A stretch of DNA of 64,000 bases from Candidatus Woesearchaeota archaeon (lineage in GTDB: Archaea > Nanobdellota > Nanobdellia > SCGC-AAA011-G17 > GW2011-AR18), in assembly GCA_964497265.1 (NCBI GenBank), contig CAZCCK010000004.1:606-64605 (forward strand). The letters are read 5' to 3'. Made by a program: the position numbers and the translations under genes. Of the stretch, positions 11,747-58,964 are shown one piece after another; position 1 is the first letter of the stretch; every line of letters starts with the position of its first letter. The notes beneath the pieces are model-generated. The model made no database searches. It was given only the letters and a program-made list of their open reading frames with translations, and had not been told where the DNA came from.

Positions 11747-11750
11747 TGCG

Positions 11751-13115: not shown

Positions 13116-13152
13116 AAACCTTTTTATTTAGTATTCTTCTTTCTTCTTTTTA

Positions 13153-14073
13153 ATGAAAAAGAGTCTTGTTTTTTGTTTAGTCTGTTTATTATTTTTAGCA
13201 GCCTGTCAGTATCTTCCTTTTCAATCGTCAGGAAGTGTTGTTTCTGGTAAAGGGGTTAAAGTGGAGTTTGTCGATTATCCTTCTGGAAAGCTTGGTGAAG
13301 GGGAGCTTTTCTCAGTGAGAACAAGAGTAACAAATTATAATCCTTCTTCGCCAGTTCAGGGTCAACTTTGTATTGCTGATTTTGTTTCTAAACGTTTAGG
13401 GGGAATTCCTGAAAATACGTGTCAAGATTTCATTGTTGAGAAGGCTGAAGTTGTGAATAGTAAGGTGTATGAACAGGCGAAAGAGCAAATTTTCAGTAGT
13501 TATTCGTATCATGATCTTGAGCCAAACGTTCCTTATACAGATAATATTGGTGCTATCTTTACCTATAGTGTCGCGTCTGACCATATTCTTGAAGGGTTAT
13601 GTGTAAAGACTTCTGAAAGTGTAAGAACAAGTGATGTCTCAGCAAGTAAATGTAGTAAGTCCGAATCGTTTTCTTCTGTAAAGCAGCCTGATACTCCGAT
13701 TCGAGTGACGAGTATTACTAAAGACGTGAATTATCTTGGAAATCAACAGGCTAATGTACGTTTAACAATTGATTTAAAGAAAGTAGAGGATGGAGATGTT
13801 GTGTCGTCAGAACTTGCGGATAGTTCTGCAAATCCATTCTCCGCTGTTCCTTTTATTGATTTTGATCTAAATTATGCTGGTGTGCCTTTTGAGTGTCCAG
13901 GTGTGAACGCAGGCAGGTTGCAGTTCGGGCAAGCAGAGAAAGAGATATCTTGTCATGGATTAGTAAATGTTCCTGGAGAGTTTTTGAGTGAACCTTTGGT
14001 TATTCGTTTAGGGTATAGTTTCAGAAAAACGATTCAGACACCTTCGTTTACGGTTTATTCAAATAGGGTCTAG
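13153..14073 (+). CDS. Lipoprotein-like secreted protein; paralog of 14097..15068
   Basis: Signal with a lipobox-like LAAC. Shares the PIRVTSI / PIQVTSI block and Cys spacing with the next gene. Confidence 0.5.
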   Translation: MKKSLVFCLVCLLFLAACQYLPFQSSGSVVSGKGVKVEFVDYPSGKLGEGELFSVRTRVTNYNPSSPVQGQLCIADFVSKRLGGIPENTCQDFIVEKAEVVNSKVYEQAKEQIFSSYSYHDLEPNVPYTDNIGAIFTYSVASDHILEGLCVKTSESVRTSDVSASKCSKSESFSSVKQPDTPIRVTSITKDVNYLGNQQANVRLTIDLKKVEDGDVVSSELADSSANPFSAVPFIDFDLNYAGVPFECPGVNAGRLQFGQAEKEISCHGLVNVPGEFLSEPLVIRLGYSFRKTIQTPSFTVYSNRV

Positions 14074-14096
14074 AAACGAAAAGATTTATTAATGAA

Positions 14097-15068
14097 ATGA
14101 TGCTAAAGCAAGTTGTGGAAAAAAAGATGAAGAAGGTGTATTTGTTTTCATTGTTTTCTATTCTCTTACTCTTAGCCGCATGTAGTTCTTCTAAACCTGC
14201 TGCTACAAAGGCGGGTTTTATTGGTGGAAAGGAAGGTCTTTCTCCTTCGTTGAATGTCTTATCTGGAAAAGCGAATGAAGTGTTAGATGCTAATCTTGAG
14301 GATTTTCAGATAGCTGTTAATTTGCAGAATAAAGGGGAGTATGCAGTTCAGCAAGATGAAGTGTTGGGTACCGTGACGGGTGTAGATTATAATTCGTTTT
14401 CTTTGACAACTCCTTCTTTAAGAAATGTTGAGCCTTTAGAGAAAGTAAGGTCTGATCAAAGTAAATCTGTTGCTGGCGGTCAGACTGTTTTATCTTTTCC
14501 TGCTAAGTTTAGAGATGATCTTCCTGTGGATCAAGTATATGATCTTGGTGTGAATGTATGTTATAAGTATCAAACTGGTGCTACTTCGAGTCTCTGTTTA
14601 AGAAGAGAAGCTACTAAGAGAGGAGAATCCTCTGATAAGTGTAGTGTGAATAATAATCCTGTTATTGGTTCTTCTGGTGCTCCGATTCAAGTAACGTCTA
14701 TTTCTCAAAGACCTACGGGCGCGAATGAGATTTCTTTTACGATTGCTATTGAGAACGTGGGTAAGGGAGATGTATATCCTCCTACGTTCATTCAGACAAA
14801 TCAGCAGTGTTTAGAGAAGAATGATGTGAAAAATAAATTCCAGATCGCGCTTTCTTTCCCTGAGAATAAGCCTGCGATTTCTTGTCCTGCTTTGGCAAAT
14901 GCAAATCAAGGAATGTTGCAGTTAATTCAAGGAAAAGCGACTTTAACCTGTAAGATCGATACGTCTCAAGAGCAGGATACGACTTTCTCAAGAAGTCCGA
15001 ATATTCAGTTAGATTATGTGTATAAGGATCTTGTTTCAACAAAAATCACCGTAAGGAATGCTGCTTAA
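14097..15068 (+). CDS. Lipoprotein-like secreted protein; paralog of 13153..14073
   Basis: Signal LLLAACSSS. Conserved blocks are shared with the previous ORF. Confidence 0.5.
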   Translation: MMLKQVVEKKMKKVYLFSLFSILLLLAACSSSKPAATKAGFIGGKEGLSPSLNVLSGKANEVLDANLEDFQIAVNLQNKGEYAVQQDEVLGTVTGVDYNSFSLTTPSLRNVEPLEKVRSDQSKSVAGGQTVLSFPAKFRDDLPVDQVYDLGVNVCYKYQTGATSSLCLRREATKRGESSDKCSVNNNPVIGSSGAPIQVTSISQRPTGANEISFTIAIENVGKGDVYPPTFIQTNQQCLEKNDVKNKFQIALSFPENKPAISCPALANANQGMLQLIQGKATLTCKIDTSQEQDTTFSRSPNIQLDYVYKDLVSTKITVRNAA

Positions 15069-15070
15069 TA

Positions 15071-15760
15071 ATGGCGCTTTTGCATGACGAACTAAAAAGT
15101 AAGTTTTCTGTCTGTGAGAAATCTGCTTATCGCGCCTGGGATGCAGTAAGTTTAATTCTTAATCGGAAAAATAAGTTAGAAGAAGCGAAATCAGCTATCT
15201 GGCAGTTGGAAAAAGAGTTCAAAGAGGTTGGCATTATTCTTAGTGAAAAGAGAAGTGCTTTAAGTGAGTACGATCGTTTGTTAACAAACGCTGTTGAAAA
15301 TTTAAAGAAGTATCAAGAATCTAAAAAGAAGAGTTATTTAGAAGAGGCAGGAGTTGTTATGAAATTAATTGGGCGTCTTTGGGGAAAGGAGTGGGGTTTT
15401 GGAAGATCCTATGATGAAAAGCTTTCTTCTTTGCTTAGTGGGATGAGCTCAAGTTCTTATGCAGGTCAGATCTATCGATTAGAATCAACTCTTCTAAAGG
15501 GGTGGAGGTATATCTTGGAGGCTATGGATGCACTGCGCTTAGAAGAGGAAGGTACAGCGTTGGTCGCCATTAATAATTCTGAAAAGATTTTAAAAACAGC
15601 TTATCTCCAGTTAGGAGATGTAGAAAAGACGTTCAAAAGTTTTTATAATGAGATTCTAGAAGCTGAAGAATTGGTGAGCGGTCCGCTTATAGGCGGTAAG
15701 TTTAAAAAAGCGACATTTATTTTAAAGGATTTTTATGATTATTCAAGAAAGTTACGATAA
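15071..15760 (+). CDS. Hypothetical cytoplasmic helical protein in the surface-protein operon
   Basis: ORF only. The gap to the previous gene is 2 nt. Confidence 0.4.
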   Translation: MALLHDELKSKFSVCEKSAYRAWDAVSLILNRKNKLEEAKSAIWQLEKEFKEVGIILSEKRSALSEYDRLLTNAVENLKKYQESKKKSYLEEAGVVMKLIGRLWGKEWGFGRSYDEKLSSLLSGMSSSSYAGQIYRLESTLLKGWRYILEAMDALRLEEEGTALVAINNSEKILKTAYLQLGDVEKTFKSFYNEILEAEELVSGPLIGGKFKKATFILKDFYDYSRKLR

Positions 15761-15799
15761 GTAAGGAAGGTTTATATAAGAAGAATCTTATTCTATAAG

Positions 15800-16477
15800 G
15801 TGGAGGATAAGCAAGCGTTTGCAGAATATTTAAAAGACAGTAAAGGCTTATTTTTTGAGACATCTTTTTTTAAAACGTTTAACAAGTATATCGGTGCGTG
15901 TTTAAGTGATTCTGCTACTATTTTAGAAGAGTTGAAAGAAAAAAATCCCCAGGTCAGATTACTTGATCTTAATCTAATAAAACTTATTTCTACGTTAAGA
16001 GGAGCGCGAGGGTTTGCTTTAGAAAAACAAAGTTTTCTTAATGAATATGAAAGTAATCTTAATGAAGTGTTGAAGGGAAAATTGGCTAAACTTAGTTCTG
16101 CGGACAATTATCTAGATGGGTTGTTCGGGTTTTCAGAACTTAAGGGATTTACGAAAGAAAAAAGAATTAATCCTCTTTATTCAAGACTTTTTGGGTATGG
16201 GTTTCTTTGCCAGTCTTGTACGAAGAATGCATTAGTGGCTATTAGTTCGAAGCAAGAGAGTAGTATAAGGTATTATCTTACAATGCAATTGAGTGAGCAA
16301 GGGTTAGGCGGTCTTAAAAGGGAGATGCAAAAGATTGTTGATGCAATGCAAATGTATGAAACACAAGCAAAGCAGGTAATTCATTTGGTAAAAGAGAATA
16401 AACTTGTTGATGCTAAGAAGAGTGTGGAAGGGTTGAGGTTGACTTTTGCTTCTCAATGGATTGAACGTCCAATTTAG
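15800..16477 (+). CDS. Hypothetical protein
   Basis: ORF only. Confidence 0.4.
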   Translation: MEDKQAFAEYLKDSKGLFFETSFFKTFNKYIGACLSDSATILEELKEKNPQVRLLDLNLIKLISTLRGARGFALEKQSFLNEYESNLNEVLKGKLAKLSSADNYLDGLFGFSELKGFTKEKRINPLYSRLFGYGFLCQSCTKNALVAISSKQESSIRYYLTMQLSEQGLGGLKREMQKIVDAMQMYETQAKQVIHLVKENKLVDAKKSVEGLRLTFASQWIERPI

Positions 16478-16512
16478 GTAAGTCTTATATAATTTTAATT
16501 CTTTTTAAAAAG

Positions 16513-17751
16513 ATGAGGTTTATAGGAGATTTTCATATTCATGGAAGATTTGCAGGTGCTTGCTCTAAAGATATTACCTTAGACAAGTTAGAGGAGTATG
16601 CAAGAATAAAAGGAATTAATGTTTTGGGTGTTGGAGATTTTACTCATCCTCAATGGTCAAAGGAAATCAAAGAAACGTTGAATGAAGATGAGAATGGGAT
16701 TCTCTGGAGTAAAAGTAATTTTCCTTTTATTTGGCAGACTGAAATTTCTATTGTGTATAGCCAAGGTGGAAAAGGAAGAAGATTGCATCATTTAGTGCTT
16801 GCTCCGAATGGAGGGGTTGCAGATCAGATTACAGAGTGGTTAAAGAAGAAAGGAAGAGTAGATTATGATGGAAGGCCTATTTTTGGAATGAGCAGTATCC
16901 AATTTGTTGATGAATTAATGTGCATTTCAAAAGAGATTGAAGTTATTCCTGCACATTGTATGACTCCTTGGTTTGGACTTTATGGTAGTAAATCTGGTTT
17001 TGATTCTTTGAAAGAATGTTTTGAGGAGAAGGAGAAATATATTCATGCTGTTGAAACGGGAATTAGTGCAGATCCAAAAATGTTAGCCCAATTTTCTCAT
17101 TTGAAGGAAAAAAGATTTGTTTCTTTTTCAGATAATCATTCTTACTGGCCTTGGCGGTTAGGACGAGAAGCAACGTTTTTTGATTTGAAAGAATTGTCTT
17201 ATGCAAATATACTCAAAGCGATTCGTACAGGAATAGGATTCGGGGGTACAATCGAGTGTCCTCCTTCTTTTGGCAAATATCACTTTTCAGGACATCGGTT
17301 GTGTAATGTTTCTTTTAATCCTGAAGAAACCAGGAAGTTGAAGGGTATTTGTCCTGTTTGCAAGAAAGAACTAACAATTGGGGTAGAGGACAGGGTAGAA
17401 GAGCTTGCAGATACAAAAGCTACTAATATTCAAAGTTTTATAGAAGTGATTCCTTTAACTGAGTTGATAACTTTTCTGTATAAGATTAAACAGCCCGGTT
17501 CTAAGAAGGTCTGGGGGGTTTATAACTCTTTAATTAAGAATTTTGAAAGTGAATATAAGGTGCTTTTAGAAGTTTCTTATGGAGATTTAATGAAGGTTGT
17601 TGATGAAAAATTAGCTAAGCTAATCTTATTAAACCGACAAGGGAAGTTAGAGCTCAAGCCAGGGTATGATGGGGTGTACGGTGAAATTGTTTTAGAGGCA
17701 GAGCAGATGCAGCCTCAAAAAAAGAAACAAAAGAGTTTAATTGATTTTTAG
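16513..17751 (+). CDS. PHP-domain nuclease, endonuclease Q-like (PHP fold plus a C-terminal zinc ribbon)
   Basis: N-terminal GDFHIHGRFAGACSKD (PHP HxH). C-terminal CNVS...CPVCKKE zinc ribbon. About 410 aa, as in archaeal EndoQ. Confidence 0.45.
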   Translation: MRFIGDFHIHGRFAGACSKDITLDKLEEYARIKGINVLGVGDFTHPQWSKEIKETLNEDENGILWSKSNFPFIWQTEISIVYSQGGKGRRLHHLVLAPNGGVADQITEWLKKKGRVDYDGRPIFGMSSIQFVDELMCISKEIEVIPAHCMTPWFGLYGSKSGFDSLKECFEEKEKYIHAVETGISADPKMLAQFSHLKEKRFVSFSDNHSYWPWRLGREATFFDLKELSYANILKAIRTGIGFGGTIECPPSFGKYHFSGHRLCNVSFNPEETRKLKGICPVCKKELTIGVEDRVEELADTKATNIQSFIEVIPLTELITFLYKIKQPGSKKVWGVYNSLIKNFESEYKVLLEVSYGDLMKVVDEKLAKLILLNRQGKLELKPGYDGVYGEIVLEAEQMQPQKKKQKSLIDF

Positions 17752-30725: not shown

Positions 30726-30805
30726 GTGAGAGCTAATTAAAAACAGAAGCTTTTAAAAGAAATCCAGTTCTCAGTTTAATTAGCCCCGCTAGGCACTTTG
30801 GTCAT

Positions 30806-30930
30806 AGCCCCGTCGTCTAGCGGCCAAGGATAAGCTTACTTTTTAAGTAGGTTCCTTAAAGTGGCCTTTGGTAGGCAGAATGCTTTCCTAAAGAAAGCCA
30901 TTGACCGCAGTTCAAATCTGCGCGGGGCTA
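30806..30930 (+). tRNA. Intron-containing tRNA, anticodon loop TTTTTAA (Lys-UUU candidate), with a roughly 50-nt insertion between the anticodon stem and the variable/T region
   Basis: Acceptor AGCCCCG/CGGGGCT. D-arm TCTAGCGGCCAAGGAT. Anticodon stem CTTAC/GTAGG, possibly extended. T-arm CGCAG-TTCAAAT-CTGCG. 125 nt total versus about 75 expected. Boundaries may be off by 1-2 nt. Confidence 0.55.
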
Positions 30931-31011: not shown

Positions 31012-31130
31012 AGCCCCGTCGAAGAGCTCTCTTGTTGAGGGTTCTGCGGAATCTAGCGGCCAAGGATATGGGACTCTGGATCCTATGACGGCAGTTAAGA
31101 GTTAGCCGAGTTCAAATCTGCCCGGGGCTA
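31012..31130 (+). tRNA. tRNA with two non-canonical introns, anticodon CTG (Gln candidate)
   Basis: Exons AGCCCCGTCG | TCTAGCGGCCAAGGAT-A-TGGGA-CTCTGGA-TCCTA-TGAC-GGCAG | TTCAAAT-CTGCC-CGGGGCT-A. The spliced length is 73 nt with all stems paired. Intron 1 is about 31022-31051 (D-arm). Intron 2 is about 31095-31110 (T-arm 53/54). Confidence 0.6.
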
Positions 31131-31214
31131 TTTTACGAAGTCTAGCTGAAATGTTATATTTTTTAAAAAGAGTATATACGTTAGGCTTATATCTGATTTT
31201 ATCTTTCTCATTTT

Positions 31215-35480: not shown

Positions 35481-35583
35481 GCCACCGTAGCTCAGACTGT
35501 TATCTAATTTTAGATGATGGGAGCAATGGTAGAGCAGCTGACTTGTAATCAGCAGGTCGGGAGTTCAAGTCTCCTCGGTGGCT
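35481..35583 (+). tRNA. tRNA-Thr (anticodon TGT) with a roughly 29-nt non-canonical intron in the D-loop (about 35498-35526)
   Basis: GCCACCG-TA-GCTC-AGAC[intron]TGGTA-GAGC-A-GCTGA-CTTGTAA-TCAGC-AGGTC-GGGAG-TTCAAGT-CTCCT-CGGTGGC-T. All stems pair. The intron contains the hairpin ATCTAA/TTAGAT. TATA-like box tatttaaa about 27 nt upstream. Confidence 0.7.
35570..35583 (+). repeat. tRNA-Thr 3' end (tctcctcggtggct), which is repeated directly at 36554-36567 and inverted at 35636-35649
   Basis: 13 of 14 nt are identical in the direct copy (cttcctcggtggct). The inverted copy is agccaccgaggaag. Confidence 0.5.
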
Positions 35584-35672
35584 CTTTACTTCTAGAACAA
35601 AGCCCTTCATCATAGGCTCTATGCTAAGGGTACTAAGCCACCGAGGAAGCATCTGCTGTGAGGAGAGGTTTG

Positions 35673-36401
35673 TTATTCTCTTTTGAAGATATAATTAAGG
35701 ATAAACTCTAAACCCCCTAGCACTACTGACAAAAAAATAGAGGTTTTATTGTCTAAGGACAATTGGTTGCGAATAATCCAAAGAGTAGTTGCAGTAATTA
35801 AGAGAACCATCACGAATTTTCTGTTTTTTTCTATAAAAAACACGATTTTAGAAAGCCTTTTAAAAAAATTTCCAGGCACAAAATTTTCTCTAAAAAATAA
35901 AAAAGAGATTACCCAGTTACTAGTAGCTAAAAAACTCATGACCACCATTAGAATTCCAAAAACTGAAAATAAAATTAATTTGATAATCAAAGTCCAGTTA
36001 CTTTTTCCAGTAAAATAAAGTCCTAACCCCCCAATCGCAAACAAAAAACTCCAAACAATTACGTTTTCAAGAATAGATATTCTTTCTTTTAACTTATAAA
36101 AAGGAGAACTCTCTAATAATACAATATACTCTTCTTCATTTTTATTTTTAAGATCGTTTAATCTTTTTTTGAGCTCATTGATTCCAGTTTTGCTCACCTG
36201 GATATAAGGTACTTGTAATTTAGATTTAACTACCCACCCCTTCTTTTCCATAATTTTTAACAAACAATGAAAATCTTGTTCGGAAATCTCTAAATAGGGA
36301 GGTTTAATTTGATGATAAAGGACAGTTGGATCTAAACCATATGGGCTTATCCCTCCATCTAAAGTCATTAAAATCCAATTTTCAATCTTTTCAATAGACA
36401 T
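35673..36401 (-). CDS. Membrane protein with an N-terminal winged-helix-like domain and 4 TM helices; flanked by copies of the tRNA-Thr 3' end
   Basis: The N-terminus MSIEKIENWILMTLDGG...LEISEQDFHCLLKIMEKKGWVV is wHTH-like. Hydrophobic helices follow. Confidence 0.4.
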   Translation of the reverse strand: MSIEKIENWILMTLDGGISPYGLDPTVLYHQIKPPYLEISEQDFHCLLKIMEKKGWVVKSKLQVPYIQVSKTGINELKKRLNDLKNKNEEEYIVLLESSPFYKLKERISILENVIVWSFLFAIGGLGLYFTGKSNWTLIIKLILFSVFGILMVVMSFLATSNWVISFLFFRENFVPGNFFKRLSKIVFFIEKNRKFVMVLLITATTLWIIRNQLSLDNKTSIFLSVVLGGLEFILNYIFKRE

Positions 36402-36553
36402 ATTTTTAAGAAGGAGGACTCTTTATTAAAACTTACTTTTATTTAATCACTTCTCAGCAGCAGAGATGAAATTATATATCTCGAATTCTTTAAAAAAGTA
36501 TGAAAACATTCAATTATTTTTGTGTAAAAAAGAACCTATCCTTAAAGCATCGA

Positions 36554-36567
36554 CTTCCTCGGTGGCT
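36554..36567 (+). repeat. Direct copy of the tRNA-Thr 3' end, a candidate attR-like remnant
   Basis: cttcctcggtggct versus tctcctcggtggct at the tRNA 3' end, about 970 bp upstream. Confidence 0.45.
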
Positions 36568-36623
36568 TAATCTAGCTTTTCTATTCTAATAATTCTTATA
36601 AATCTTGAGGGTTTGTAGTTTGA

Positions 36624-40626: not shown

Positions 40627-40718
40627 GGGCTCATGGTCTAGTGGCTATGACACAACCTTGACGTTCTCTTCGGAGATCAAAATGGTTGTAGTCGCAGGTT
40701 CGAGTCCTGCTGGGCCCA
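40627..40718 (+). tRNA. tRNA-Val (anticodon GAC) with a canonical 37/38 intron of about 19 nt (40664-40682)
   Basis: GGGCTCA-TG-GTCTAGTGGCTATGAC-A-CAACC-TTGACG[intron ttctcttcggagatcaaaa]T-GGTTG-TAGTC-GCAGG-TTCGAGT-CCTGC-TGGGCCC-A. The intron contains the hairpin TCTC-TTCG-GAGA. Confidence 0.7.
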
Positions 40719-41148: not shown

Positions 41149-43299
41149 ATGGGGAAAAGGGGGCAGGTAACTGTTTTCGTAGTGTTAGGTTTAATTATTC
41201 TTATTCTTGCAGGTTCATTTCTTGCGTACCGTTATTTTGTTATAAATTCTAGTTTAGAGAGTACAAGACAAGAGTTGAGTAGAGTTCCGAGTCAGTTTCA
41301 GCCTGTTGCTGCTTATTTGGATGAGTGTACCCAAACTGTGGCGAGTGATGCATTGACTTTTGTAGGTTCAAGGGCGGGATATTTTACATTGCCGACAGAC
41401 CCGCTTCCTCCTTCTTCTATTAATCCTCTGCAAAGAAATTTAGAAGTTCTTCCAAATACGGATTTGAAAGTTCCTTTGTGGTTTAGAGAATCTAGTAATG
41501 GTATTCAAGAAGTGAATGTTCCTTCAAAAGCAGATGTGGAGAAAAATCTAGCGTTGTATGTAACAACTCACTTTCCAGAGTGTCTTGACAATTTATCTTC
41601 TTTTCAAGAAGAAGGGTATCAAATAATTTCTTCAGCCACTCAAGTAAATTCAAAAGTAACTGTAACTAAAGATGCCGTGGATGTTGTTGTTTCCTTTCCG
41701 ATGCAAGTTTCTTTCAAAGGAGCTAATTTTAAGTTGGATGGTTCTCTTGCTCATGTAGAGACGCAGTTCGGAGATTTATACAATTCCGCGGTCGAGATGT
41801 TAACAACTGAAAATCAAGGATTTTTCTTAGAAAATAAAACATTAGATATGCTTGTTGCGTATGATAAGGAGGTTCCGTATTCTGGTTCTGATCTTTCTTG
41901 TTCAGAAACAGTTTGGTCAAAAACAGAAGTAATTAAAAGATTCAAAGCGATTCTTTTTGAAAATACTGCTGCGATTCATGTGGTCGGTACAGATTTTAGT
42001 TTAGATAATGAAGGTCAAAAATATTTATTGTTTGATGCTTTAAAGAGTAAGCGGTCTGATGTTTCTATAAACTTAAGATATAATCCTTCGTGGCCTACGC
42101 TTGTGGATATTAGTCCTTCGCAAGGGGATGTTTTAAGATCAGATCCTATAACCAAGAATACGGGCGGATTATTAACAACGATTTTATCTTCTTACTTTTG
42201 TTTGAACGATCATCATTTTATTTATACGATAAAATATCCTGTTTTAATTTCGTTGACAGATAAGAATGGTTTTGTGTTCCAGTATGCTACAGAGGTAATT
42301 ATTGATAGAAATCTTGCCAGAGAAAATAGGATTGTTCCCTTAGATATTCCAGATACTCGTTCTTTATTATGCGAGAATGCGGCTAGTCCTCTAACGATCA
42401 ATACCTATTCTTTGGATCAGAATGAAGAACTTGTTCCTTTGAGTGGTGCTGATGTTTCGTTTAAGTGTTTCCCTGACACGTGTCCTTTGAAGGCTGTTGG
42501 GCAGGCGGCAAATAAGATGCAAGTTCTTGCTCCTCCTTGTGTGAATGGGGTTGTAGAAGTTTCCAAAAAGAATTTTTTCAATGGTAAATCTGTTGTATCT
42601 ACGAATACAGCTGAAGTACAAAATCTCAACATTGTTCTTGAGCCTTTGTATGAGAAGCATGTTCAAGTAAAAGTAATTGATAAGAAAACTGGTGAAATAC
42701 GTGATCCGTTTAGTTCAGAATTAATCTCTTTTAGTTTCAAGCATCAGAACGCGCGGTATAATGAATACTTCACGTATCAGAGCGAAGGTGCCTCTTGTGA
42801 GTTAGAGGATACGTGTGGTCCTGGTTTAGAATGTAAGAGGGGCGCATGCGTGTATCCTAGTTGTGAATCTAAAGAAGATTGTTCTCTAAATCAAGAGTGT
42901 GTCTCTAAAAAATGCGCTCCGATTAATACGATTCATTTGCTTGCGGGTGATTATGCTGTCGAGTCTTTCGTTTCTCGTACAAGTACGTGGCCGATTCAAA
43001 CGCAAAAGAAAACGGTGCAAAACTGCGTACAGACCACTGCAGATGGAGTGTTGGGTCTTTTCTTCACAAAAGAAAAATGTTTCACGACAGAGATTCCTTC
43101 CGTTGATTTTAAGAACGCGCTTGTGGGTGGAGGGAATTTCAATGTTACATTTGAGCGTAGTGCTTTAGCTTCAAAGAACGTTTTAACGTTGTATGTTCTT
43201 GCTGATGCCACTCCTGCGGATCTAGAAGGTTTTGCTAATATTCAGACAGATTTAAGTATCAATAAAGATAATCCGAACTTTAGGTATCCTCAGCTATGA
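41149..43299 (+). CDS. Pilin-like (class III signal) large secreted protein with a C-terminal Cys-rich EGF-like module
   Basis: N-terminus MGKRGQVTVFVVLGLIILILAGSFLAY (KRG then Q at +1, followed by a hydrophobic stretch). CELEDTCGPGLECKRGACVYPSCESKEDCSLNQECVSKKCAP. The stop overlaps the next start (ATGA). Confidence 0.5.
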   Translation: MGKRGQVTVFVVLGLIILILAGSFLAYRYFVINSSLESTRQELSRVPSQFQPVAAYLDECTQTVASDALTFVGSRAGYFTLPTDPLPPSSINPLQRNLEVLPNTDLKVPLWFRESSNGIQEVNVPSKADVEKNLALYVTTHFPECLDNLSSFQEEGYQIISSATQVNSKVTVTKDAVDVVVSFPMQVSFKGANFKLDGSLAHVETQFGDLYNSAVEMLTTENQGFFLENKTLDMLVAYDKEVPYSGSDLSCSETVWSKTEVIKRFKAILFENTAAIHVVGTDFSLDNEGQKYLLFDALKSKRSDVSINLRYNPSWPTLVDISPSQGDVLRSDPITKNTGGLLTTILSSYFCLNDHHFIYTIKYPVLISLTDKNGFVFQYATEVIIDRNLARENRIVPLDIPDTRSLLCENAASPLTINTYSLDQNEELVPLSGADVSFKCFPDTCPLKAVGQAANKMQVLAPPCVNGVVEVSKKNFFNGKSVVSTNTAEVQNLNIVLEPLYEKHVQVKVIDKKTGEIRDPFSSELISFSFKHQNARYNEYFTYQSEGASCELEDTCGPGLECKRGACVYPSCESKEDCSLNQECVSKKCAPINTIHLLAGDYAVESFVSRTSTWPIQTQKKTVQNCVQTTADGVLGLFFTKEKCFTTEIPSVDFKNALVGGGNFNVTFERSALASKNVLTLYVLADATPADLEGFANIQTDLSINKDNPNFRYPQL

Positions 43300-46200
43300 A
43301 AAAAAGTAGTGTGATTGCAGTGTTTTGTATGGTTTTGATAGTGACTCTTCCTTTGGTTGTTGCTCAAAGCCAATATTCTTCCTCTTCACAAAGTCTTCTT
43401 CCAGGATATCAACCTAATGAGGTTGCTTTTTTTCAGCAGCCTTCTTCTTTGGCTGATTTGCTTGGTGGTGCTTTTAGTCAGGCTCTTGGAACTGAGCAAG
43501 ATCTTGGAGAGGCGTTAGTTATTTACGCTGCGACTCCTGATCCTCCTTTTATTCGTGCTTCTGCTTTGGAGCAGCAGCCTTTGCCGATTTACATTCCTTT
43601 GAGAGCAACTGATTTTGGTTCGATTTTAGGAAAGGTTTCTGAGGATCCTTCGCAGCGTGATCCTTTTACGGGTTTTACTTCTTTGCCTCCTGTAAAAAGA
43701 ATGGTTGTGAAGTTAAATAGGACAAATCCTTTTGTGAACACAATAAAGTATATTCCTCCTGAGTCTGGATTTTCGAAAGATAATATGGGTTATCTTGTTG
43801 TTGTTTTAAACAGGTTAAGAAATGAAACGAGTTTACCTACTGCTCGTAGTCAGCAGACAAGTGTGTTTAATAATTCTCTTCCGCAGGATGTTGTGCCTAA
43901 TTTAGGCGCAGATACTCCTGTGATTGACTTGGATTTGACTGCTGAGATTTATTTGAATTTGCAAGAGAGTTCTTTGACAAATTTAGGTCAGAGGGATCTT
44001 GTTTTAAAACCAGAATCAGAAAATGATTTTTTGAAAAAATCTTCTAAAGAGGAGAATGCGTTTTATAATGATCGTGCGTATGTACGCGCTTCTGCGATTG
44101 GTCAAGATAGGGTTACGTTAAATGTTTATAATAAGGATTTGTTGCCTTTGACCTTTTTTTCTGCGCCAAATGCTCCTGCTGGATCAAAGGTTGCTTCTGT
44201 CTCCTTAACCACCAATCAAGTATCTAGTCCTGTAAGACTAGGTATTAGTTCCAATCCGTTGCAAGATAGTGTTGTGTTTAAATTAAACAATGTTGTGCTT
44301 CCGGCAAATAGTGTTTCTTATCAATTAAGTACGTCTTCTCAAACATTTGAAAGGGAAGCGAATGAAGGTTCCTTCTTGTATCCTGGTTCTCATTGGCAGA
44401 TTATAAGTGTTAAAAAAAATGAAAGAGACGCGACTGCTGAGCAAGTGAGAAAGCAAGGTTTTACTCTAGATAGTGCTTCGCGTAAAAAGGTAGAGCAAGC
44501 TCAGCCGGGTGATATTAAGATTGTTTCTTATCAAGTATTTTTGAAAAATAGCGCTACCGGTGAGTCTCGTTCTTTGGAAAGAGAGGTGGTTACAGGTAGT
44601 ACGTTTAATTTTGATTTTCCTCCTCTTGATGACGCGACTGCGTTAGCGTTAGAAGAGATGTATTGTCCTTCAGCGTTACAAAAGACTGCCAATGAAGATT
44701 ATGGGTGTGCTGCTGTAAGAAGCTTTAAGCAAGTGATTAATGATTACCCCGCGAGCGCTGAGGCGAAAAGTGCGTATGGGCAATTAGTTGATGTGTACGA
44801 TAATGATCTAATTAGTAATCCTGCTTGTAAGGTTATTGGTAAAGATCAAGTTTTAGATGAGGATAAATGTAGTTTGTTTTTGGATGATATGTTTTCGCTT
44901 GCGTATTATTATGCGTCGAAAGTGAAGGTTTCTAATCCTGTTTTATTGCAAAAGTTAAGAGATGGATTTGGGGGAAAAGGTGGTTTTGAGTTTTTGGAAG
45001 ATGAAGGTATTGGTTTTCAAGTAAAAAATGTAAAAATTGCGACAAATGATGATAAGGGCAAGTTTTCTCTTTCTGTGAATAGAAATCCTCTGGTTATGTT
45101 GCAAGTGGGTAATACTATTCCAAATTTGGTGGGAACGACAACGAAAGGAGATTTGTTTAAGTTTATTGTGCGTCAGATTAATCAGAATTCTGTTTTGGTG
45201 GAGAAAAAGAAAGTTGCGGATATTAATCTGCCTGTTGATGAAAAGAGTGTTTCTTTTGGTTCTTTAACTTTAATTTCTGGTCAGAATAATGTTTTATTAA
45301 AAAAAGGTGAAGAAAATCAGCAAGATGAAAATGTTTTATTAGATATTGGTTCTATTGAAGTAAATACGAGGGCTTCTATCTCTATTATTCCTGGTGCGAA
45401 TCGAGGATTAGCTCGTTCTTCGTTTAGAGTGCATATTCCTATTGAGCCTCGTCCTTTTCCAAATCTTGGTGAAACGTTGAAAGGTCATATTAATGCGACA
45501 AGAAAATTGGTTGCGGATCTTGATTCTGTAATTACAAAGATGGATACAGTGGTAAAGTCTTGGAAGAAATTATGTATTATTACCTTTGCTTTTGTAACCT
45601 TGAAAAGTTCGTTTTTAGGTGGAACAACAAGAACGCTCGCAAGAAGAGGTGTTGCTCAAGTCTACAAAAAGGATTGTGCTACTCAAGTAGCTGCGACTAA
45701 ATTTAGAAGTGTTGATGATTGTCTTGCAAGCAGAACAGATGAGTTAAGTAAGGATGTTGATGCGAATCAAAAAGCGATTGAGGCTGTACAGAGTCAGCTT
45801 AGCAAAGAGACCCCTGATCATCTGAAGATGTGCGGAGATGTTCCTTTCCAAGAGGCGCGTTTACTTGGAGCAACAATTCAAGATTGCCAAGAGTATTTAC
45901 GTTTGAAAGCTTTAAAATCTGAGCAAACGAGTGATTTGTTAAAAATAGAAGCAGACAAAAGTTTAACTGATTTAAAGTTTGAGCAGAAGAAAGATCTTAT
46001 TAGTCAAGCTTCGAAAGCTTATGAAGATAATAAAGATAAGTTGCCTTTCAAAGGAGATGACGCTGCTCAAAAAGGTATGCAGTATTACGCGAATTTGTTT
46101 GAGCAGGAGCAGCAAAAGAAGACGCCGATTCGTGAAGATGTGATTAATGTGCCTTCTTTGATTCCAAATGGAAAAGATACTGCTATTGCTATTCTAAATC

Positions 46201-48578
46201 CGGTCTTTGATCCTCAGACAAAGCAAATAAATCCTGATTCTATTAAGCCTACTGAGCTTAAACAGATTACTCAGTTGCAGTTTAAGATTTATGATGAAGG
46301 CGCTGATGAGGTTGTTAAGCAGGCAACAGTAAATTGTCTGCAAAATGTGAATTCGCAAGTCGCAGCTAAAAATACTCCTGCATACACGTTGCCTTGTGTT
46401 CAGAAGAGGTTGAACGCGTTAAATGTTCCTGATCCTTCTGGTTTGTATGTTAACCCAGTTTTTATTGGTGCTGCGAATCAGATAAGTGCGGATGCTGCTG
46501 TTGCGAGTGCTTTAAGTAATTATAAGGATCAGTTGTTAGTTGATCAAGGAAGTCTAGCAAAGAAAGGCGCTTTACCAAAGGCAAGTTTGTTTAAAGTTTA
46601 TTCTTCTCCGATTGTTCCTCGTGGAAACGAATTGAAGAGTTTAGATTATGCTTATTTACAAGAAGGCGCAACTCCAGGCGGTCTTGTCGCGCAATATAAT
46701 CCTGAGTCTGGAAAAACATTCTGTTATCCTACTGGTAAAAACGGAGAGTATATTTTAGTCTTGGAAAGATATCCTGAGAATGGAAGAGTGAGAACGTTTA
46801 GAGCGATGAATGTTGGGTTGAATGGGGTGATGGAGTGTGGTGGCTCTGGTGATGATGTTCTTGCGGATAAGGGAGACGAGTCTACGCTAAACTTACCTGA
46901 AAATGCGAAGTTAAAGAATGATTACCTTTCTATTGTTGAGCGTGCTCCTACATGCAAGAAAGATGGGGATCAAGCTGGTTTTGTTTTTAATACTAAGGGA
47001 AATAAGATTCCTGTTGTTTGTAGTATGAAGCAGTCTTTATTGAACGCTGCGTTGAGTAATCCTAAGTGTGTGGATGTAATGGAGCCTGAAGATTGTAAGA
47101 TTTTGTTTAATGTGTGTGATCCTGTGATGTGCCCTGCTTCTAGGTGTAATTTAGGTGGAAGGTATCAAGTTCCGGATGTCATCCAGTCTGGTATTGTTGG
47201 TTCTTTATTCTTGTGCGCTCCAAATATTAAGCAGGGTGTTGTTGTTCCAGTATGTTTGACTGGTGTGCTTGCCGGTTTAAAGAATATTAAGAGTTTGCTT
47301 GAAAGTTATGCTGATTGTTTGGAAGCGAATTTGAAAGATGGAAAGAATGTCGGCTTCTGCGATTATATTAGGAGTGTTGGTGTGTGTGAGTTAGTTTGGA
47401 GAGAGTCAACAAGTTTACTTGGAATTAAAGGTGGAGTGATTGATTACTTGTCGGATAAAGTCTTTTCTGAGCCTGAAGGTGGAGCAGAGTATTTAACGTT
47501 CCAGAATTCGTTGCAAAACGTTGGTTCTTCGTTTAATTATTTTACGACTGAATATTCGAATACGTACGTTGCCGCACTGAAAGGTTCTTCTACTGCTGAG
47601 GTTGGTTCTCAGATTTGTAGGCTTGGAGTGTATGGCAGGTTGCCTACTGCTGGTGAAGTGTTAGATAAATTATCTGAGCCTGAAGATCCCCCTCAATTCT
47701 TTGCGTTGTTAGATGAAGCTCCGTATACGCAGACTGTTGGCGAGTCTCCTCTTGCGCTAAATGTTCCTGCGAGTGCTAAAGAGCTTTCATTGTATAAAGT
47801 GTTTTATCATATCTATGCTGGAACTGGCTATGCGCAAGATCAAGCTGTTTTTGCAGAGCCGTTGAATCCTGCGACAAATCAGCCAAATAAAGCTGTAACG
47901 TACTCTGTTGTTTTAAGAAATAGGGAAGCGGGGTTACCAGATGTGTACATGACTTCGGAAGGAGAGTTTTTACAGAATCAAGCGACGATTGCGCGCGGTC
48001 AGTACGCTCAAAAAACAGTACAAAAGGTGGCGGTTCCTGGTTATAATGAGGTGTGTATTGTTTTGAATGGTAAGGAAGCGTGTGGTTTTGGAAAAGTAAG
48101 TTCTTCTTTTTCTTTGAATTATTTGAATGATCGTCTTGTTGAGTCTGATAGTAAGAAAAAGATTACTTCTAGCGAGCAGTGTGTTCCAAATGTTCCGACA
48201 AGTGGGGTTGCTTTAGGTAGTTTAGCTACCCCTGAGAAGTATGGTGTTACCAGTACGGGAATAAGTAGGGTTTGTAATCCTACGCCTCCGACAGCTGATC
48301 TTTCTAGATGGGCAGATGTAGGTTCTTGTGGAAAGGATAAGAATGGGATTGATCGTGGAACATGTTGGCTTGATAAAAATTCTGTGCGCGTTCAAGATCT
48401 TGAGGCAAAGAAAGAGATTAATGTTGCTTTGAAACAATCTGGTTTAGCTGAAAGTGAAAAATCAAAAGTTCTTTCTAGTGAGGACAGTGTAAAGAAGTTG
48501 TCTGAATTAAATACAAAGAGAGATAGCATTCTTGCTCAGTTGAGAGCTGCAGTGCAAAGATTGGCAGGTGCTCTATGA
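43296..48578 (+). CDS. Giant (1760 aa) secreted protein of unknown function
   Basis: Signal peptide MKKSSVIAVFCMVLIVTLPLVVAQS. Continuous ORF with no recognisable catalytic motif. Cys-rich segment near aa 1230-1330. Start and stop overlap the neighbouring genes. Confidence 0.55.
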   Translation: MKKSSVIAVFCMVLIVTLPLVVAQSQYSSSSQSLLPGYQPNEVAFFQQPSSLADLLGGAFSQALGTEQDLGEALVIYAATPDPPFIRASALEQQPLPIYIPLRATDFGSILGKVSEDPSQRDPFTGFTSLPPVKRMVVKLNRTNPFVNTIKYIPPESGFSKDNMGYLVVVLNRLRNETSLPTARSQQTSVFNNSLPQDVVPNLGADTPVIDLDLTAEIYLNLQESSLTNLGQRDLVLKPESENDFLKKSSKEENAFYNDRAYVRASAIGQDRVTLNVYNKDLLPLTFFSAPNAPAGSKVASVSLTTNQVSSPVRLGISSNPLQDSVVFKLNNVVLPANSVSYQLSTSSQTFEREANEGSFLYPGSHWQIISVKKNERDATAEQVRKQGFTLDSASRKKVEQAQPGDIKIVSYQVFLKNSATGESRSLEREVVTGSTFNFDFPPLDDATALALEEMYCPSALQKTANEDYGCAAVRSFKQVINDYPASAEAKSAYGQLVDVYDNDLISNPACKVIGKDQVLDEDKCSLFLDDMFSLAYYYASKVKVSNPVLLQKLRDGFGGKGGFEFLEDEGIGFQVKNVKIATNDDKGKFSLSVNRNPLVMLQVGNTIPNLVGTTTKGDLFKFIVRQINQNSVLVEKKKVADINLPVDEKSVSFGSLTLISGQNNVLLKKGEENQQDENVLLDIGSIEVNTRASISIIPGANRGLARSSFRVHIPIEPRPFPNLGETLKGHINATRKLVADLDSVITKMDTVVKSWKKLCIITFAFVTLKSSFLGGTTRTLARRGVAQVYKKDCATQVAATKFRSVDDCLASRTDELSKDVDANQKAIEAVQSQLSKETPDHLKMCGDVPFQEARLLGATIQDCQEYLRLKALKSEQTSDLLKIEADKSLTDLKFEQKKDLISQASKAYEDNKDKLPFKGDDAAQKGMQYYANLFEQEQQKKTPIREDVINVPSLIPNGKDTAIAILNPVFDPQTKQINPDSIKPTELKQITQLQFKIYDEGADEVVKQATVNCLQNVNSQVAAKNTPAYTLPCVQKRLNALNVPDPSGLYVNPVFIGAANQISADAAVASALSNYKDQLLVDQGSLAKKGALPKASLFKVYSSPIVPRGNELKSLDYAYLQEGATPGGLVAQYNPESGKTFCYPTGKNGEYILVLERYPENGRVRTFRAMNVGLNGVMECGGSGDDVLADKGDESTLNLPENAKLKNDYLSIVERAPTCKKDGDQAGFVFNTKGNKIPVVCSMKQSLLNAALSNPKCVDVMEPEDCKILFNVCDPVMCPASRCNLGGRYQVPDVIQSGIVGSLFLCAPNIKQGVVVPVCLTGVLAGLKNIKSLLESYADCLEANLKDGKNVGFCDYIRSVGVCELVWRESTSLLGIKGGVIDYLSDKVFSEPEGGAEYLTFQNSLQNVGSSFNYFTTEYSNTYVAALKGSSTAEVGSQICRLGVYGRLPTAGEVLDKLSEPEDPPQFFALLDEAPYTQTVGESPLALNVPASAKELSLYKVFYHIYAGTGYAQDQAVFAEPLNPATNQPNKAVTYSVVLRNREAGLPDVYMTSEGEFLQNQATIARGQYAQKTVQKVAVPGYNEVCIVLNGKEACGFGKVSSSFSLNYLNDRLVESDSKKKITSSEQCVPNVPTSGVALGSLATPEKYGVTSTGISRVCNPTPPTADLSRWADVGSCGKDKNGIDRGTCWLDKNSVRVQDLEAKKEINVALKQSGLAESEKSKVLSSEDSVKKLSELNTKRDSILAQLRAAVQRLAGAL

Positions 48579-51500
48579 AGAAAGCAGTTTTACCTTTAAT
48601 ATTCCTTCTTTTTATTTCTCTTGTAGTTGCTCAGTCTGATATTTGTGATAAACAGAATGTGAAGTGTTTAGAGAAAGATCCTGCGAGTGTTACATTAATT
48701 AATGATTTTCGTTCTTTAGAGTATGGTCAACTTGCTACGTTTTCTAGTGATAATGATGTTTCTGCTAAAGCGTTGTACGATCAAGCTTCTGGTTTTAAGG
48801 ACATTGCTCTTTTGAAAAGGCAGTATGAAGGTGTTGTTCACTCTAATAAGAAAGTAAGCCAAGTATTAAACGCTTTTTCTGAGAATGTTTTAAGCGCTCA
48901 TAAAGATTCTTCAGGTAATATAAGATTTGATTTTTTTGTCTCTTCTGCTGATGCTGCAACGTATGTCCTTAATTGGAATAATCAGGTGGTTGCGCAGGCG
49001 ACAGAGAACGATCTTCAAGGGAACAGTATTGTTTTTCTAGTAAGTGCTGACGAATTGCAAAAGGCAGGTGTAACAAGTCTCGATATTTCTGAATTTTCTA
49101 AGTTTAGTGTTTCAAAGGGAGATGAGCAAGGAAAGGTGTTTGCTCGTTATGGGGTGAGTAGTGTTTCTGTTCCTTCTCCTTTAATTTCTGCGGCTACGGT
49201 GGATCGTATTCCTGCAGATTCAATAAGTATTGGCTACGATCCTGCCAAACTTGCTCTTGAGATAAGCATTGCTCCTAATCAAGTCGGTTCAACAGCTCAT
49301 TTGTTAATTGATGATCAGGATATTCAGCTTAATGGTGGGATTGGTGTTGATGGGAAGTTTAAGGCAAAGGTGGACCTTTCCTATCCGAATCAGATAAAAT
49401 TAAAAGATGCGTTAATGAAAGATAGTTCTTTACTTTTCAGTGCGAAAATTAAGACAACTGACGCAACATTTACTCCTTCCGAGATTTATGTTACTGCTCC
49501 TAGACTTTTAGAATCGTCTGGAGTGATTCCTGTTGTTATTGCTCCTACTCCGCCTACAGCGCCTGAAAAGAAAGTGCAAGCTGAGCAAGTAGGGATTATT
49601 GATTTGACAAATACTGAAGAGTTAAAGCAGCAAGCAATTACAGCTTGTGCTCAAGAAGCTTTGGGAATTGAGTTAAGTAAACCCAATTCGAAACAGGTGG
49701 AAGTTATTCAGCAAAGAATGACGTCTGTTCAACCAGGTGCTTCTGATACGTTGGTTAATTTAGTTCGATCTGCTACAAATGATCCTTCAGAGCAGGTAAC
49801 TTTAGCAGGTATTATGTCCAAAGAGTCGCTAGCGAAGGTCGATATTGGTGACAGTTCTGCTGGAGCGCGTGGAGTGATGCAGTTTATTTCTCTTTCTGCT
49901 GTTGAGATGAAAGTTCCCTATAAGGATTCGTATGGCGATCGTTGTGCGAACAAAGCTGCTGCAAAAGTTACTGGACAGTGCGCATTATGTCTTCCTTCTG
50001 GATGTAATAATGGTGATGCTCGAAAGCAGCCGGATATAGAGATTGCTTCAGCGAATGTATTATTACAACAAAAGAAAAAAAGTTTACAAAAATGTATTAA
50101 AGATAGTACTCAAGGAAAGAATATTGTTGTTCCTCCAGAGGATTTATTTAAGTTTACCATTGCTGCTTACAATAGGGGTGAAGGAAATATTTGTCATGAT
50201 ATTGAACGGGTAATTAGTCAAGGTTCTCAAAAAGATGCTTCAAAAGTAACCTGGGAAGATGTTGCGGCCTTGCAATTATTTCCAAGTCAGACACGTTGTT
50301 ATGTTCCTGCAGTAATCTTTTTTATGTCTGCGCATAGAAATTTATTTAATGTAGAAACTATTGGTGTTTCAAAAGAAACTGTATCCACTCAGTTAGGATG
50401 TGCTGATTGTGGTTTAGATAACCAATGCAGTGCAGATGATTGTCGTCAAAGAGGGTGTATTGTTGTTTCTAAGATTATTGGTTCTTCTTGTGCAGATAAG
50501 CCTGCGGAGGTGGTTACTCCAACACCAAATCAAGATCCTTGTAATGCTTGTGGAAAAGAGTGGACTGCTTTTTGTAATAAAAAGAATTGTGATGAAATTA
50601 AGAGTTTGTTAGAATCTCAAGGAATCGGATCTTGCACATATACGCCTGGAGTAGTTGATAGTATTTTTGGTGGTTCTTGTTCTTCAGCTGTAACAGCAAA
50701 TCCTTTAGTGGGTGGTTGTACGAATGTGGACCGATCGAAAAAGATCTTTCCGCTCAGAAGTGTGCAGGTAACTTCTTGTTATGGAAAACGGATTTTAAAG
50801 GGAAGTGAGCAATGGCATCCGGGTATTGATTTTAATGCGCCTATAGGAACAGATGTTTTGGCGGTTGATGAGGGCACGGTTTCAAAGATTTGTGTGGGTA
50901 GTGCTAAGACTGATTGTGGTGGTTACGGGTACTATGTGAGAATCAAGCACCCTGATGGAAGTATTAGTCAATATAATCATCTTTCGCAGTCCTCAGTTTC
51001 TAACGGAGAAAATGTCAAACAAGGACAGGTTATTGCAAAAAGTGGAAATACGGGCGATGTTACAGGTCCCCATTTACATTTCAATATTTATTGTAGTGAA
51101 CAGGATCTAAATGCGGGTCAGGATTATAAGTTAGATCCATTTTATTATTTACCTGACATTCCTTTAGCGAAAATTAATCAAAATGCGTGTAGGCTTTCTC
51201 CGATCTTTAATCAGATTTACGCGGTTAATCCTCAATCTCCGCAAGTTTTAGCAGCGCAGCCTCTTGCAAATGAACCAAGTGATGACGCTCATCCTGCTGA
51301 TTTGAATGTAGAAATTCATCCTCAAGAAGTATATTTAGTGTGGTCTGAAGGAGAGTTCGAACCTCCAACGCTCGTGCCACAGTTAACAAGTAAGCCGGTT
51401 GTAGGTACAAGATATTTAGCTGATGCTTCTGATGGTTTTTATGTTGAGCAAGTTTCAAAAGACGGAATTTCGCTTTCGTTGTTTTCTACAGATGAGCAGG

Positions 51501-58807: not shown

Positions 58808-58964
58808 TGCGGGGAACAGGATTCGAACCTGCGAAGGCACTAAGCCATCAGGTATCTTCAGTGATGGTTCGTAAGAACTCGCCACAGCCGCCTAAGCTAA
58901 ATCTTTTAGTTCTTTATACAAAGAAGCTAAAATCTGATCCATTTGGCCACTCTGGAATCCCCGC
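58808..58964 (-). tRNA. Class-II-like tRNA (Leu/Ser type D-arm) with about 70 nt of intronic insertion; the anticodon is unresolved
   Basis: Minus-strand 5' end GCGGGGA-TT-CCA-GAGTGGCCAAA-TGG-A and 3' end GCAGG-TTCGAAT-CCTGT-TCCCCGC-A pair perfectly as acceptor/T-arm. The internal 105 nt contains extra hairpins. A CTTAGGC loop (Leu-UAG-like) is present but could not be phased by eye. Confidence 0.45.

Follow-up and report, generated by a model that had tools for sequence, protein, structure and literature searches.

Non-canonical and multiple bulge-helix-bulge (BHB) tRNA introns have been described in several studies (Marck & Grosjean 2003; Sugahara 2007, 2008; reviewed in PMC4090602), and multi-intron tRNAs of Woesearchaeota and Pacearchaeota, as well as of ARMAN, have already been published (Kaneta 2018, PMC5829648; Fujishima 2011, PMC3239211). 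Positions 25/26 and 53/54 are both among the intron positions listed (PMC4090602). For instance, the tRNA-Pro(UGG) of Pyrobaculum islandicum carries introns at 25/26, 37/38 and 56/57 (PMC4090602), and the tRNA-Pro of ARMAN-2 carries introns at 53/54 and 59/60 (PMC3239211). Position 10/11 is not named in the running text of the review, as distinct from the full published position tables (PMC4090602). The tRNA sets of Woesearchaeota and Pacearchaeota are incomplete, which has been blamed on disrupted genes that went undetected (PMC5829648).

The tRNA-Gln(CUG) gene described here, with one intron in the D-arm (10/11) and one in the T-arm (53/54), shares with the known archaeal BHB multi-intron tRNAs its short introns, several per gene, and a 4-bp helix with 3-nt bulges in hBHBh' or HBh' form. 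It differs from the Thermoproteales genes with BHB introns in having a DPANN host and in lacking the canonical intron at 37/38. Similar to ARMAN-2, it combines a DPANN host, a strict hBHBh' intron at 53/54 and a highly disrupted set of tRNA genes; in contrast to ARMAN-2, it belongs to a different phylum-level lineage and has its second intron in the D-arm. The Woesearchaeota and Pacearchaeota sets (Kaneta 2018, PMC5829648, Figure 7) come from the same broad lineage as the closest relatives that we found, and that survey gives tRNAscan-SE 2.0 proportions, without this gene, the 10/11 site or a comparison of introns between sister genomes (PMC5829648). Two or three introns per gene, in both the D- and the T-arm, are also found in tRNA genes of nucleomorphs and of Cyanidioschyzon merolae, where, unlike here, hosts and enzymes are eukaryotic and some introns are 3 nt long and without a BHB (PMC4090602, PMC3728597). 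The details that are possibly new to the literature are the 10/11 site, a gene without the canonical intron, and a mosaic of introns in CTG and TTG genes across sister genomes.

The window (the whole stretch of 64,000 nucleotides that was analysed) has a G+C content of 36.7% and an archaeal gene content, including eRF1, aIF2-alpha, L44e, GINS51, TruD, FtsY, SRP54, a Bud32/RIO-type kinase, S15, S3Ae, S8e and TFB; judging from its sequence, the host is a DPANN archaeon (Nanoarchaeia or Woesearchaeota-like). An initial annotation, made from the letters alone, had placed two introns in a tRNA gene at 31012-31130, and the coordinates it gave for both turned out to be exact (Table 1). With exons and introns alternating, the gene reads AGCCCCGTCG / aagagctctcttgttgagggttctgcggaa / TCTAGCGGCCAAGGATATGGGACTCTGGATCCTATGACGGCAG / ttaagagttagccgag / TTCAAATCTGCCCGGGGCTA. 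The three joined exons make up the predicted 73-nt tRNA, which ARAGORN identifies as tRNA-Gln(ctg) and in which all four stems are paired (acceptor 7 bp, D 4 bp, anticodon 5 bp, T 5 bp), the D stem with two G-U pairs and the acceptor stem with A1-U72 as its first pair. The loops and the anticodon were also read correctly: the spliced product has the anticodon loop CUCUGGA with anticodon CTG, the T-loop UUCAAAU and the discriminator A73, and it keeps the invariant bases U8, A14, G18, G19, A21, U33, G53, U54, U55, C56, A58 and C61. The canonical 37/38 intron and the CCA end are both absent from the gene sequence. By eye, no TATA-like box was seen upstream of 31012 around -27, where it usually lies, and the TTTT that follows the gene is a possible archaeal oligo-T terminator.

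Table 1. Coordinates of the tRNA-Gln(CUG) gene, of its splice motifs, of the other tRNA genes of the window and of the tRNA-Gln paralogues in two relatives (window positions unless a locus is named).
Feature	Position	Strand	Remarks
tRNA-Gln(CUG) gene	31012-31130	+	119 nt unspliced, 73 nt spliced
Exon 1	31012-31021	+	tRNA positions 1-10
Intron 1, H, 5' strand C5 C6 G7 U8	31016-31019	+	pairs with GCGG 31046-31049; competes with acceptor pairs 5-7
Intron 1	31022-31051	+	30 nt; position 10/11 (D-arm); relaxed HBh'
Intron 1, hairpin h'	31023-31045	+	9 bp, AGAGCUCUC/GAGGGUUCU, loop UUGUU
Intron 1, H, 3' strand GCGG	31046-31049	+	GCGGAA invariant in four genomes with a 10/11 intron
Exon 2	31052-31094	+	tRNA positions 11-53
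Anticodon CTG	31076-31078	+	within loop CTCTGGA 31074-31080
Intron 2, 5' strands of the motif	31086-31092	+	h UGA 31086-31088; H CGGC 31089-31092, which takes in T-stem bases 49-51
Intron 2	31095-31110	+	16 nt; position 53/54 (T-arm); strict hBHBh'
Intron 2, h' UAA-gag-UUA	31096-31104	+
Intron 2, H, 3' strand GCCG	31105-31108	+
Exon 3	31111-31130	+	tRNA positions 54-73
Intron 2, h, 3' strand UCA	31112-31114	+	inside exon 3
TTTT	31131-31134	+	abuts discriminator A73; read from the sequence
tRNA-Gln(UUG) gene	30806-30930	+	81 nt upstream of tRNA-Gln(CUG); two introns
tRNA-Gln(UUG), intron 25/26	30832-30859	+	28 nt; HBh'; 9-bp hairpin
tRNA-Gln(UUG), intron 37/38	30872-30895	+	24 nt; strict BHB
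tRNA-Thr(UGU) gene	35481-35584	+	31-nt D-loop intron 15/16 at 35496-35526; H GCUC/GAGC, hairpin 10 bp
tRNA-Val(GAC) gene	40627-40718		canonical intron, 19 nt
Class II tRNA gene, apparently Leu(UAG)	58808-58964	-	anticodon arm extended by about 72 nt
tRNA-Leu(UAG), intron 30/31	58898-58933	-	36 nt; H 4/4, h' 6
tRNA-Gln paralogues, window			TTG: 25/26 + 37/38; CTG: 10/11 + 53/54
tRNA-Gln paralogues, locus L060	4998-5112 and 7815-7933		TTG: 37/38 + 53/54; CTG: 25/26 + 37/38
tRNA-Gln paralogues, locus L115	6217-6326 and 7489-7582		TTG: 21/22 + 53/54; CTG: 15/16 only

Splice junctions were parsed with a single geometry, in which the 5' exon ends with base p and the intron with base q. Bases p-5..p-2 and q-5..q-2 form the central helix H, the 5' bulge consists of p-1, p and p+1 and the 3' bulge of q-1, q and q+1, and the cut falls after the second base of each bulge; two further helices are h', within the intron, and h, between the exons. 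The rule agrees with the canonical introns (37/38) of two other genes in the window, tRNA-Gln(UUG) (H CUUU/AAAG, h 6 bp) and tRNA-Val, and of the 63 retrieved tRNA-Gln genes that bear introns it parsed 59 in full. Applied to the junctions of tRNA-Gln(CUG), as the initial annotation had proposed for a check, it finds the motif at both introns, each with a 4-bp central helix and 3-nt bulges.

The motif of intron 2 is a strict hBHBh', in which both outer helices close the bulges. Its H joins C48 G49 G50 C51 to GCCG (4/4), the bulges are AG^U and AG^U, and the outer helices are h UGA/UCA and h' UAA-gag-UUA, of 3 bp each. A 4-nt direct repeat, AGTT, lies at both junctions of intron 2 and allows five registers with an identical product; the motif is formed only in the register chosen at the outset (register 0), the others pairing 0-2 of 4 positions.

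Intron 1 has a relaxed motif, HBh' in the nomenclature of Marck and Grosjean, a form with H, h' and a single well-formed bulge, in which the second splice site lies outside any closed 3-nt bulge. Its H joins C5 C6 G7 U8 to GCGG (4/4), with a 5' bulge CG^A of 3 nt, a 3' bulge AA^U and an h' of 9 bp, and it fails the strict hBHBh' form, since h = 0 and the exon-exon helix beside the 3' site is missing. In the local fold, the 3' site sits in an 8-nt loop that is closed by a distal G2C3C4/G18G19C20 helix. H, the 5' bulge of 3 nt and h' are all present in the local minimum-free-energy (MFE) structure of 31012-31062, which accounts for 62% of the ensemble. As this H borrows acceptor bases 5-7 and U8, the acceptor stem must be partly open at the time of cutting.

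The same parse was reached without the proposed coordinates. We enumerated all removals of one to three segments that restore the tRNA-Gln template, keeping the fewest introns and requiring the full central helix and 3-nt bulges, and this parsimony rule, applied blind, returned exactly 10/11 (30 nt; H 4/4, h' 9 bp) and 53/54 (16 nt; H 4/4, h' 3, h 3). It replaced a score favouring more introns, which had over-split the gene into three-intron parses. When intron 1 was shuffled, H 4/4 with an h' of at least 9 bp arose in 1e-5 of trials, and for shuffled intron 2, H 4/4 with an h' of at least 3 bp arose in 5e-4 of trials.

The folding energies are less telling. The precursor has an MFE of -44.8 kcal/mol, compared with -38.2 kcal/mol when motif 1 is enforced, -40.0 kcal/mol when motif 2 is enforced and -32.0 kcal/mol with both, i.e., conformers competent for splicing cost 5-13 kcal/mol more than the MFE and are not the predicted minimum. 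Folding z-scores for the whole precursor and for the junction folds showed no stability significantly above that of shuffled sequences. Each H competes with pairs of the mature tRNA, namely acceptor pairs 5-7 in the case of intron 1 and T-stem pairs 49-51 in that of intron 2. Because the energetics are weak, our case is built on motif geometry and comparison and not on energy. Given that the H helices compete with mature stems in conformers above the MFE, the enzyme would have to capture the substrate conformers, or these would have to arise while the precursor is being transcribed.

For comparison, genomes were scanned for the shared 5' exon, with a gap of 0-30 nt allowed after position 10, which yielded 114 loci. 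Almost all are from DPANN archaea (Woese-, Nano-, Aenigmat-, Micr- and Iainarchaeota), with a few from Caldarchaeum, Geothermarchaeota and Marsarchaeota. The 5' 26 nt of the tRNA-Gln are identical in 110 archaeal tRNA-Gln genes, and in the 110 parsed genes introns were counted at 37/38 (48 genes), 59/60 (12), 25/26 (8), 53/54 (4, with 3 more assigned by hand), 10/11 (3, with L070 in addition) and 29/30 (2). Multiple introns are present in 18 of the 110 genes retrieved, nearly all of them from DPANN, with some from Caldarchaeum, Geothermarchaeota and Marsarchaeota.

The closest relative found is locus L060 (from the metagenome-assembled genome of Candidatus Nanoarchaeia isolate SO_2017_SWC_27), whose SRP54 has 74% DNA identity to that of the window; the order SRP54 - Bud32 - tRNA-Gln is common to the window, L060, L005, L024, L044, L015, L086 and L082. 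The spliced tRNA-Gln(CTG) of the window and that of L060 are identical at 73 of 73 positions, whereas the two introns of the L060 gene, of 31 nt and 15 nt, lie at 25/26 and 37/38, respectively, unlike the pair in the window. Identical exons with different sets of introns indicate that selection holds the exons while the introns turn over. Perfect conservation of exons combined with full replacement of introns is what would be expected of a functional spliced gene and not of a pseudogene.

Both intron positions recur elsewhere. Introns at 10/11 were found in three other DPANN genomes, L015 (30 nt), L086 (29 nt) and L070 (26 nt), each ending in GCGGAA after a hairpin of differing sequence. Introns at 53/54 are present in six other genes (L006, L044, L082, L026, L060-TTG and L115-TTG), and in the alignment of the seven homologues (A1) 98% of motif cells are paired, far better than in any slid register. 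In L082, three central-helix pairs are changed on both strands (CCCA/UGGG vs CGGC/GCCG), tracking its different T-stem; as this covariation is a single event in a single sequence, it is supportive and not statistical proof. The gene, the anticodon and the number, positions and boundaries of the introns first proposed all hold; relatives use the same two sites, with compensatory change, and the gene behaves as a functional one, with exons conserved, introns varying and positions shared (10/11 in four genomes, 53/54 in seven genes).

A metagenome scan with the middle exon retrieved one locus, L115, whose CTG gene has a D-loop intron at 15/16 and neither 10/11 nor 53/54, and whose TTG gene has 53/54. 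The mosaic pattern of introns in the TTG and CTG genes of the window, L060 and L115 (Table 1) would fit either conversion of one paralogue by the other or introns that are often gained and lost. The metagenome-assembled genome SMAG_U8021 contains two distinct tRNA-Gln(TTG) genes, L026 (complement, start 7826 on the reverse strand) and L015; the L026 gene shows a mismatch in the acceptor stem (CGTGGCT) and a central helix of 3/4 in its 53/54 intron, and it may be a decaying copy or reflect heterogeneity of the bin. The canonical introns of the Aenigmatarchaeota tRNA-Gln(TTG) genes (L025, L038, L047, L079, L085, L087, L090, L094, L099, L106 and others) are 29-42 nt long and share CCAAAGCTTTGA followed by GATGA..GAA, which resembles CUGA/GAUGA (K-turn or box D'/C'-like). 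We would like to note that these introns may be protein-binding or guide-RNA-like.

All five tRNA genes of the window (5/5) are interrupted. The introns at 10/11 (Gln), 15/16 (Thr) and 25/26 (Gln) follow one modular design, i.e., an A, a 9-10-bp hairpin, a 4-nt mimic of the stem partner of the upstream exon, and AA. Beyond this common architecture, no sequence similarity was seen by eye among the window introns at different positions, so intron transposition is left without direct support. A second intron of the tRNA-Leu(UAG) gene, of about 37 nt near 37/38, is imperfect, with a central helix of 3/4 and no placement that gives the full 4-bp helix. A tentative and rather unlikely reading would have the introns of the two tRNA-Gln paralogues actively reshuffled in this Woesearchaeota-like lineage, by gene conversion between near-identical exons or by transposition, with the introns of the 5' half sharing a modular design and 10/11 serving as an undescribed insertion hot-spot. 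As the 10/11 motif needs an open acceptor stem, this would imply cleavage before folding of the cloverleaf.

Several other features of the window were recorded. The last 12 nt of the tRNA-Thr gene, TCCTCGGTGGCT (35572-35583), have an exact direct repeat at 36556-36567, and imperfect inverted repeats of 44 nt (35634-35677 and 36526-36569) flank an ORF at 35673-36401 (minus strand, 242 aa, no Pfam match); the segment 35572-36569 resembles a small insertion or mobile element next to the 3' end of tRNA-Thr. The sequence AGCCCCGCTAGGCACTTTGGTCAT (30782-30805, plus strand) adjoins the 5' side of tRNA-Gln(TTG), echoes its AGCCCCG (acceptor 5' strand), CTAG and CTTTGG (anticodon loop), and overlaps a 10-bp inverted repeat (30732-30741 / 30776-30785); it may be a collapsed relic of the 5' half of that gene. 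Two giant ORFs occupy 43296-52219 (plus strand), one of 1760 aa with no Pfam match, then one of 1214 aa (48575-52219) with Peptidase_M23, Amidase_2 and SLT domains, i.e., domains of bacterial cell-wall hydrolases that are here encoded by an archaeon. Seven consecutive same-strand ORFs of 225-454 aa at 10550-17751 (plus strand) had no Pfam match at E<0.001.

Annotation tools deal poorly with these genes. The unspliced sequence 31012-31130 was missed by ARAGORN in default and intron modes, and by Rfam both at the gathering threshold and in a whole-window E-value search; when Rfam was run on an isolated 600-nt stretch, it gave a partial tRNA match only (17.7 bits). The tRNA-Gln(UUG) gene was missed by Rfam at the gathering score as well, and ARAGORN -i labels it wrongly as tRNA-Phe. 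For tRNA-Thr, Rfam reported the 3' part only (35523-35583) and ARAGORN missed the gene. Of the 18 tRNA-Gln genes with multiple introns, ARAGORN recognised none (0/18).

Taken as a whole, the sequence evidence makes it very probable that 31012-31130 is a functional tRNA-Gln(CUG) gene with two protein-spliced introns of the bulge-helix-bulge type. A dead tRNA-Gln pseudogene with two disabling insertions, in a cell where CAG is read by tRNA-Gln(UUG) or by another copy, appears improbable. It would account for the failure of ARAGORN and Rfam to recognise the unspliced sequence and fits with the endonuclease not being found in the window, but both insertions lie in precise splice motifs that are very unlikely to arise by chance, and the exons match those of the L060 gene at 73/73 positions though the flanking coding DNA is only 74% identical. 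Moreover, the insertion sites recur in other genomes with inserts that are divergent in sequence and structurally equivalent, and all other tRNA genes of the window are interrupted too. A second, intact copy of tRNA-Gln(CUG) may exist elsewhere in the genome, outside the window.

Marginally less probable again is a real gene with other boundaries or another number of introns, whether through shifted sites, three introns or removal of one insert in some other way. The 4-bp helix with 3-nt bulges exists only in register 0 of intron 2 (0-2 of 4 pairs in the rest), despite the five product-equivalent registers that the AGTT repeat allows, and no alternative register of intron 1 preserves the product. 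Three-intron parses did appear under the scoring that favours more introns, but the parsimonious parse with full motifs is unique. That an AT-rich stretch of 119 nt should come to resemble a tRNA by chance after two arbitrary deletions is scarcely credible: the product is 73/73 identical to the tRNA of a relative, its 5' 26 nt are shared exactly by 110 archaeal tRNA-Gln genes, and the synteny with SRP54 and Bud32 is conserved, all of which outweighs the facts that the deletions were originally picked by eye and that the thermodynamic z-scores are weak.

For the functional gene, we infer transcription, cleavage and ligation, as well as the type of enzyme, from this anatomy. A precursor of about 119 nt would be transcribed, and at each junction four exon bases upstream of the 5' site would pair with four intron bases upstream of the 3' site. 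An archaeal EndA would then cut behind the second bulge base at both motifs, leaving 2',3'-cyclic phosphate and 5'-OH ends, and an RtcB-type ligase would join the three exons. Addition of CCA would follow ligation, as CCA is not encoded in the gene. The EndA/RtcB route is established knowledge of archaeal tRNA splicing (PMC4090602) and is applied here by analogy. Pfam searches found neither EndA nor RtcB among the approximately 55 ORFs of the window, and tblastn with an approximate Methanocaldococcus EndA query gave no EndA match in the window or in any of the retrieved loci.

Alpha4 EndAs with an 'L3' loop have been described for several DPANN lineages, including the Woesearchaeota and Pacearchaeota genomes surveyed, and have been linked to marked disruption of tRNA genes (Kaneta 2018, PMC5829648). 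For the lineage of the window, the literature points to an alpha4 enzyme that has an L3 loop, and not to epsilon2 (PMC5829648). The initial annotation had stated that such a gene requires a splicing endonuclease of relaxed specificity and that multi-intron tRNAs of this kind are restricted to a few archaeal lineages. The former applies to intron 1, whose motif is HBh' without an adjacent exon-exon helix, but not to intron 2, which is a strict hBHBh'. Since intron 1 has only HBh', with its 3' site in an 8-nt loop and the acceptor stem opened, it probably needs a broad-specificity enzyme, e.g., the L3-loop alpha4 EndA described for DPANN. The latter statement undersells the distribution, as 18 of 110 tRNA-Gln genes are multi-intron, nearly all of them in DPANN, for which such genes have been published (PMC5829648, PMC3239211).

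The tRNA-Gln(CUG) gene is useful for annotation; it leaves the understanding of how such introns work unchanged and will not surprise a specialist. When tRNAs seem to be missing from DPANN genomes, the cause can lie in their detection, which is what Kaneta et al. had suspected. The window and L060, with an identical mature tRNA and wholly different introns, form a clean natural pair in which to study how protein-spliced introns are gained, are lost and move.
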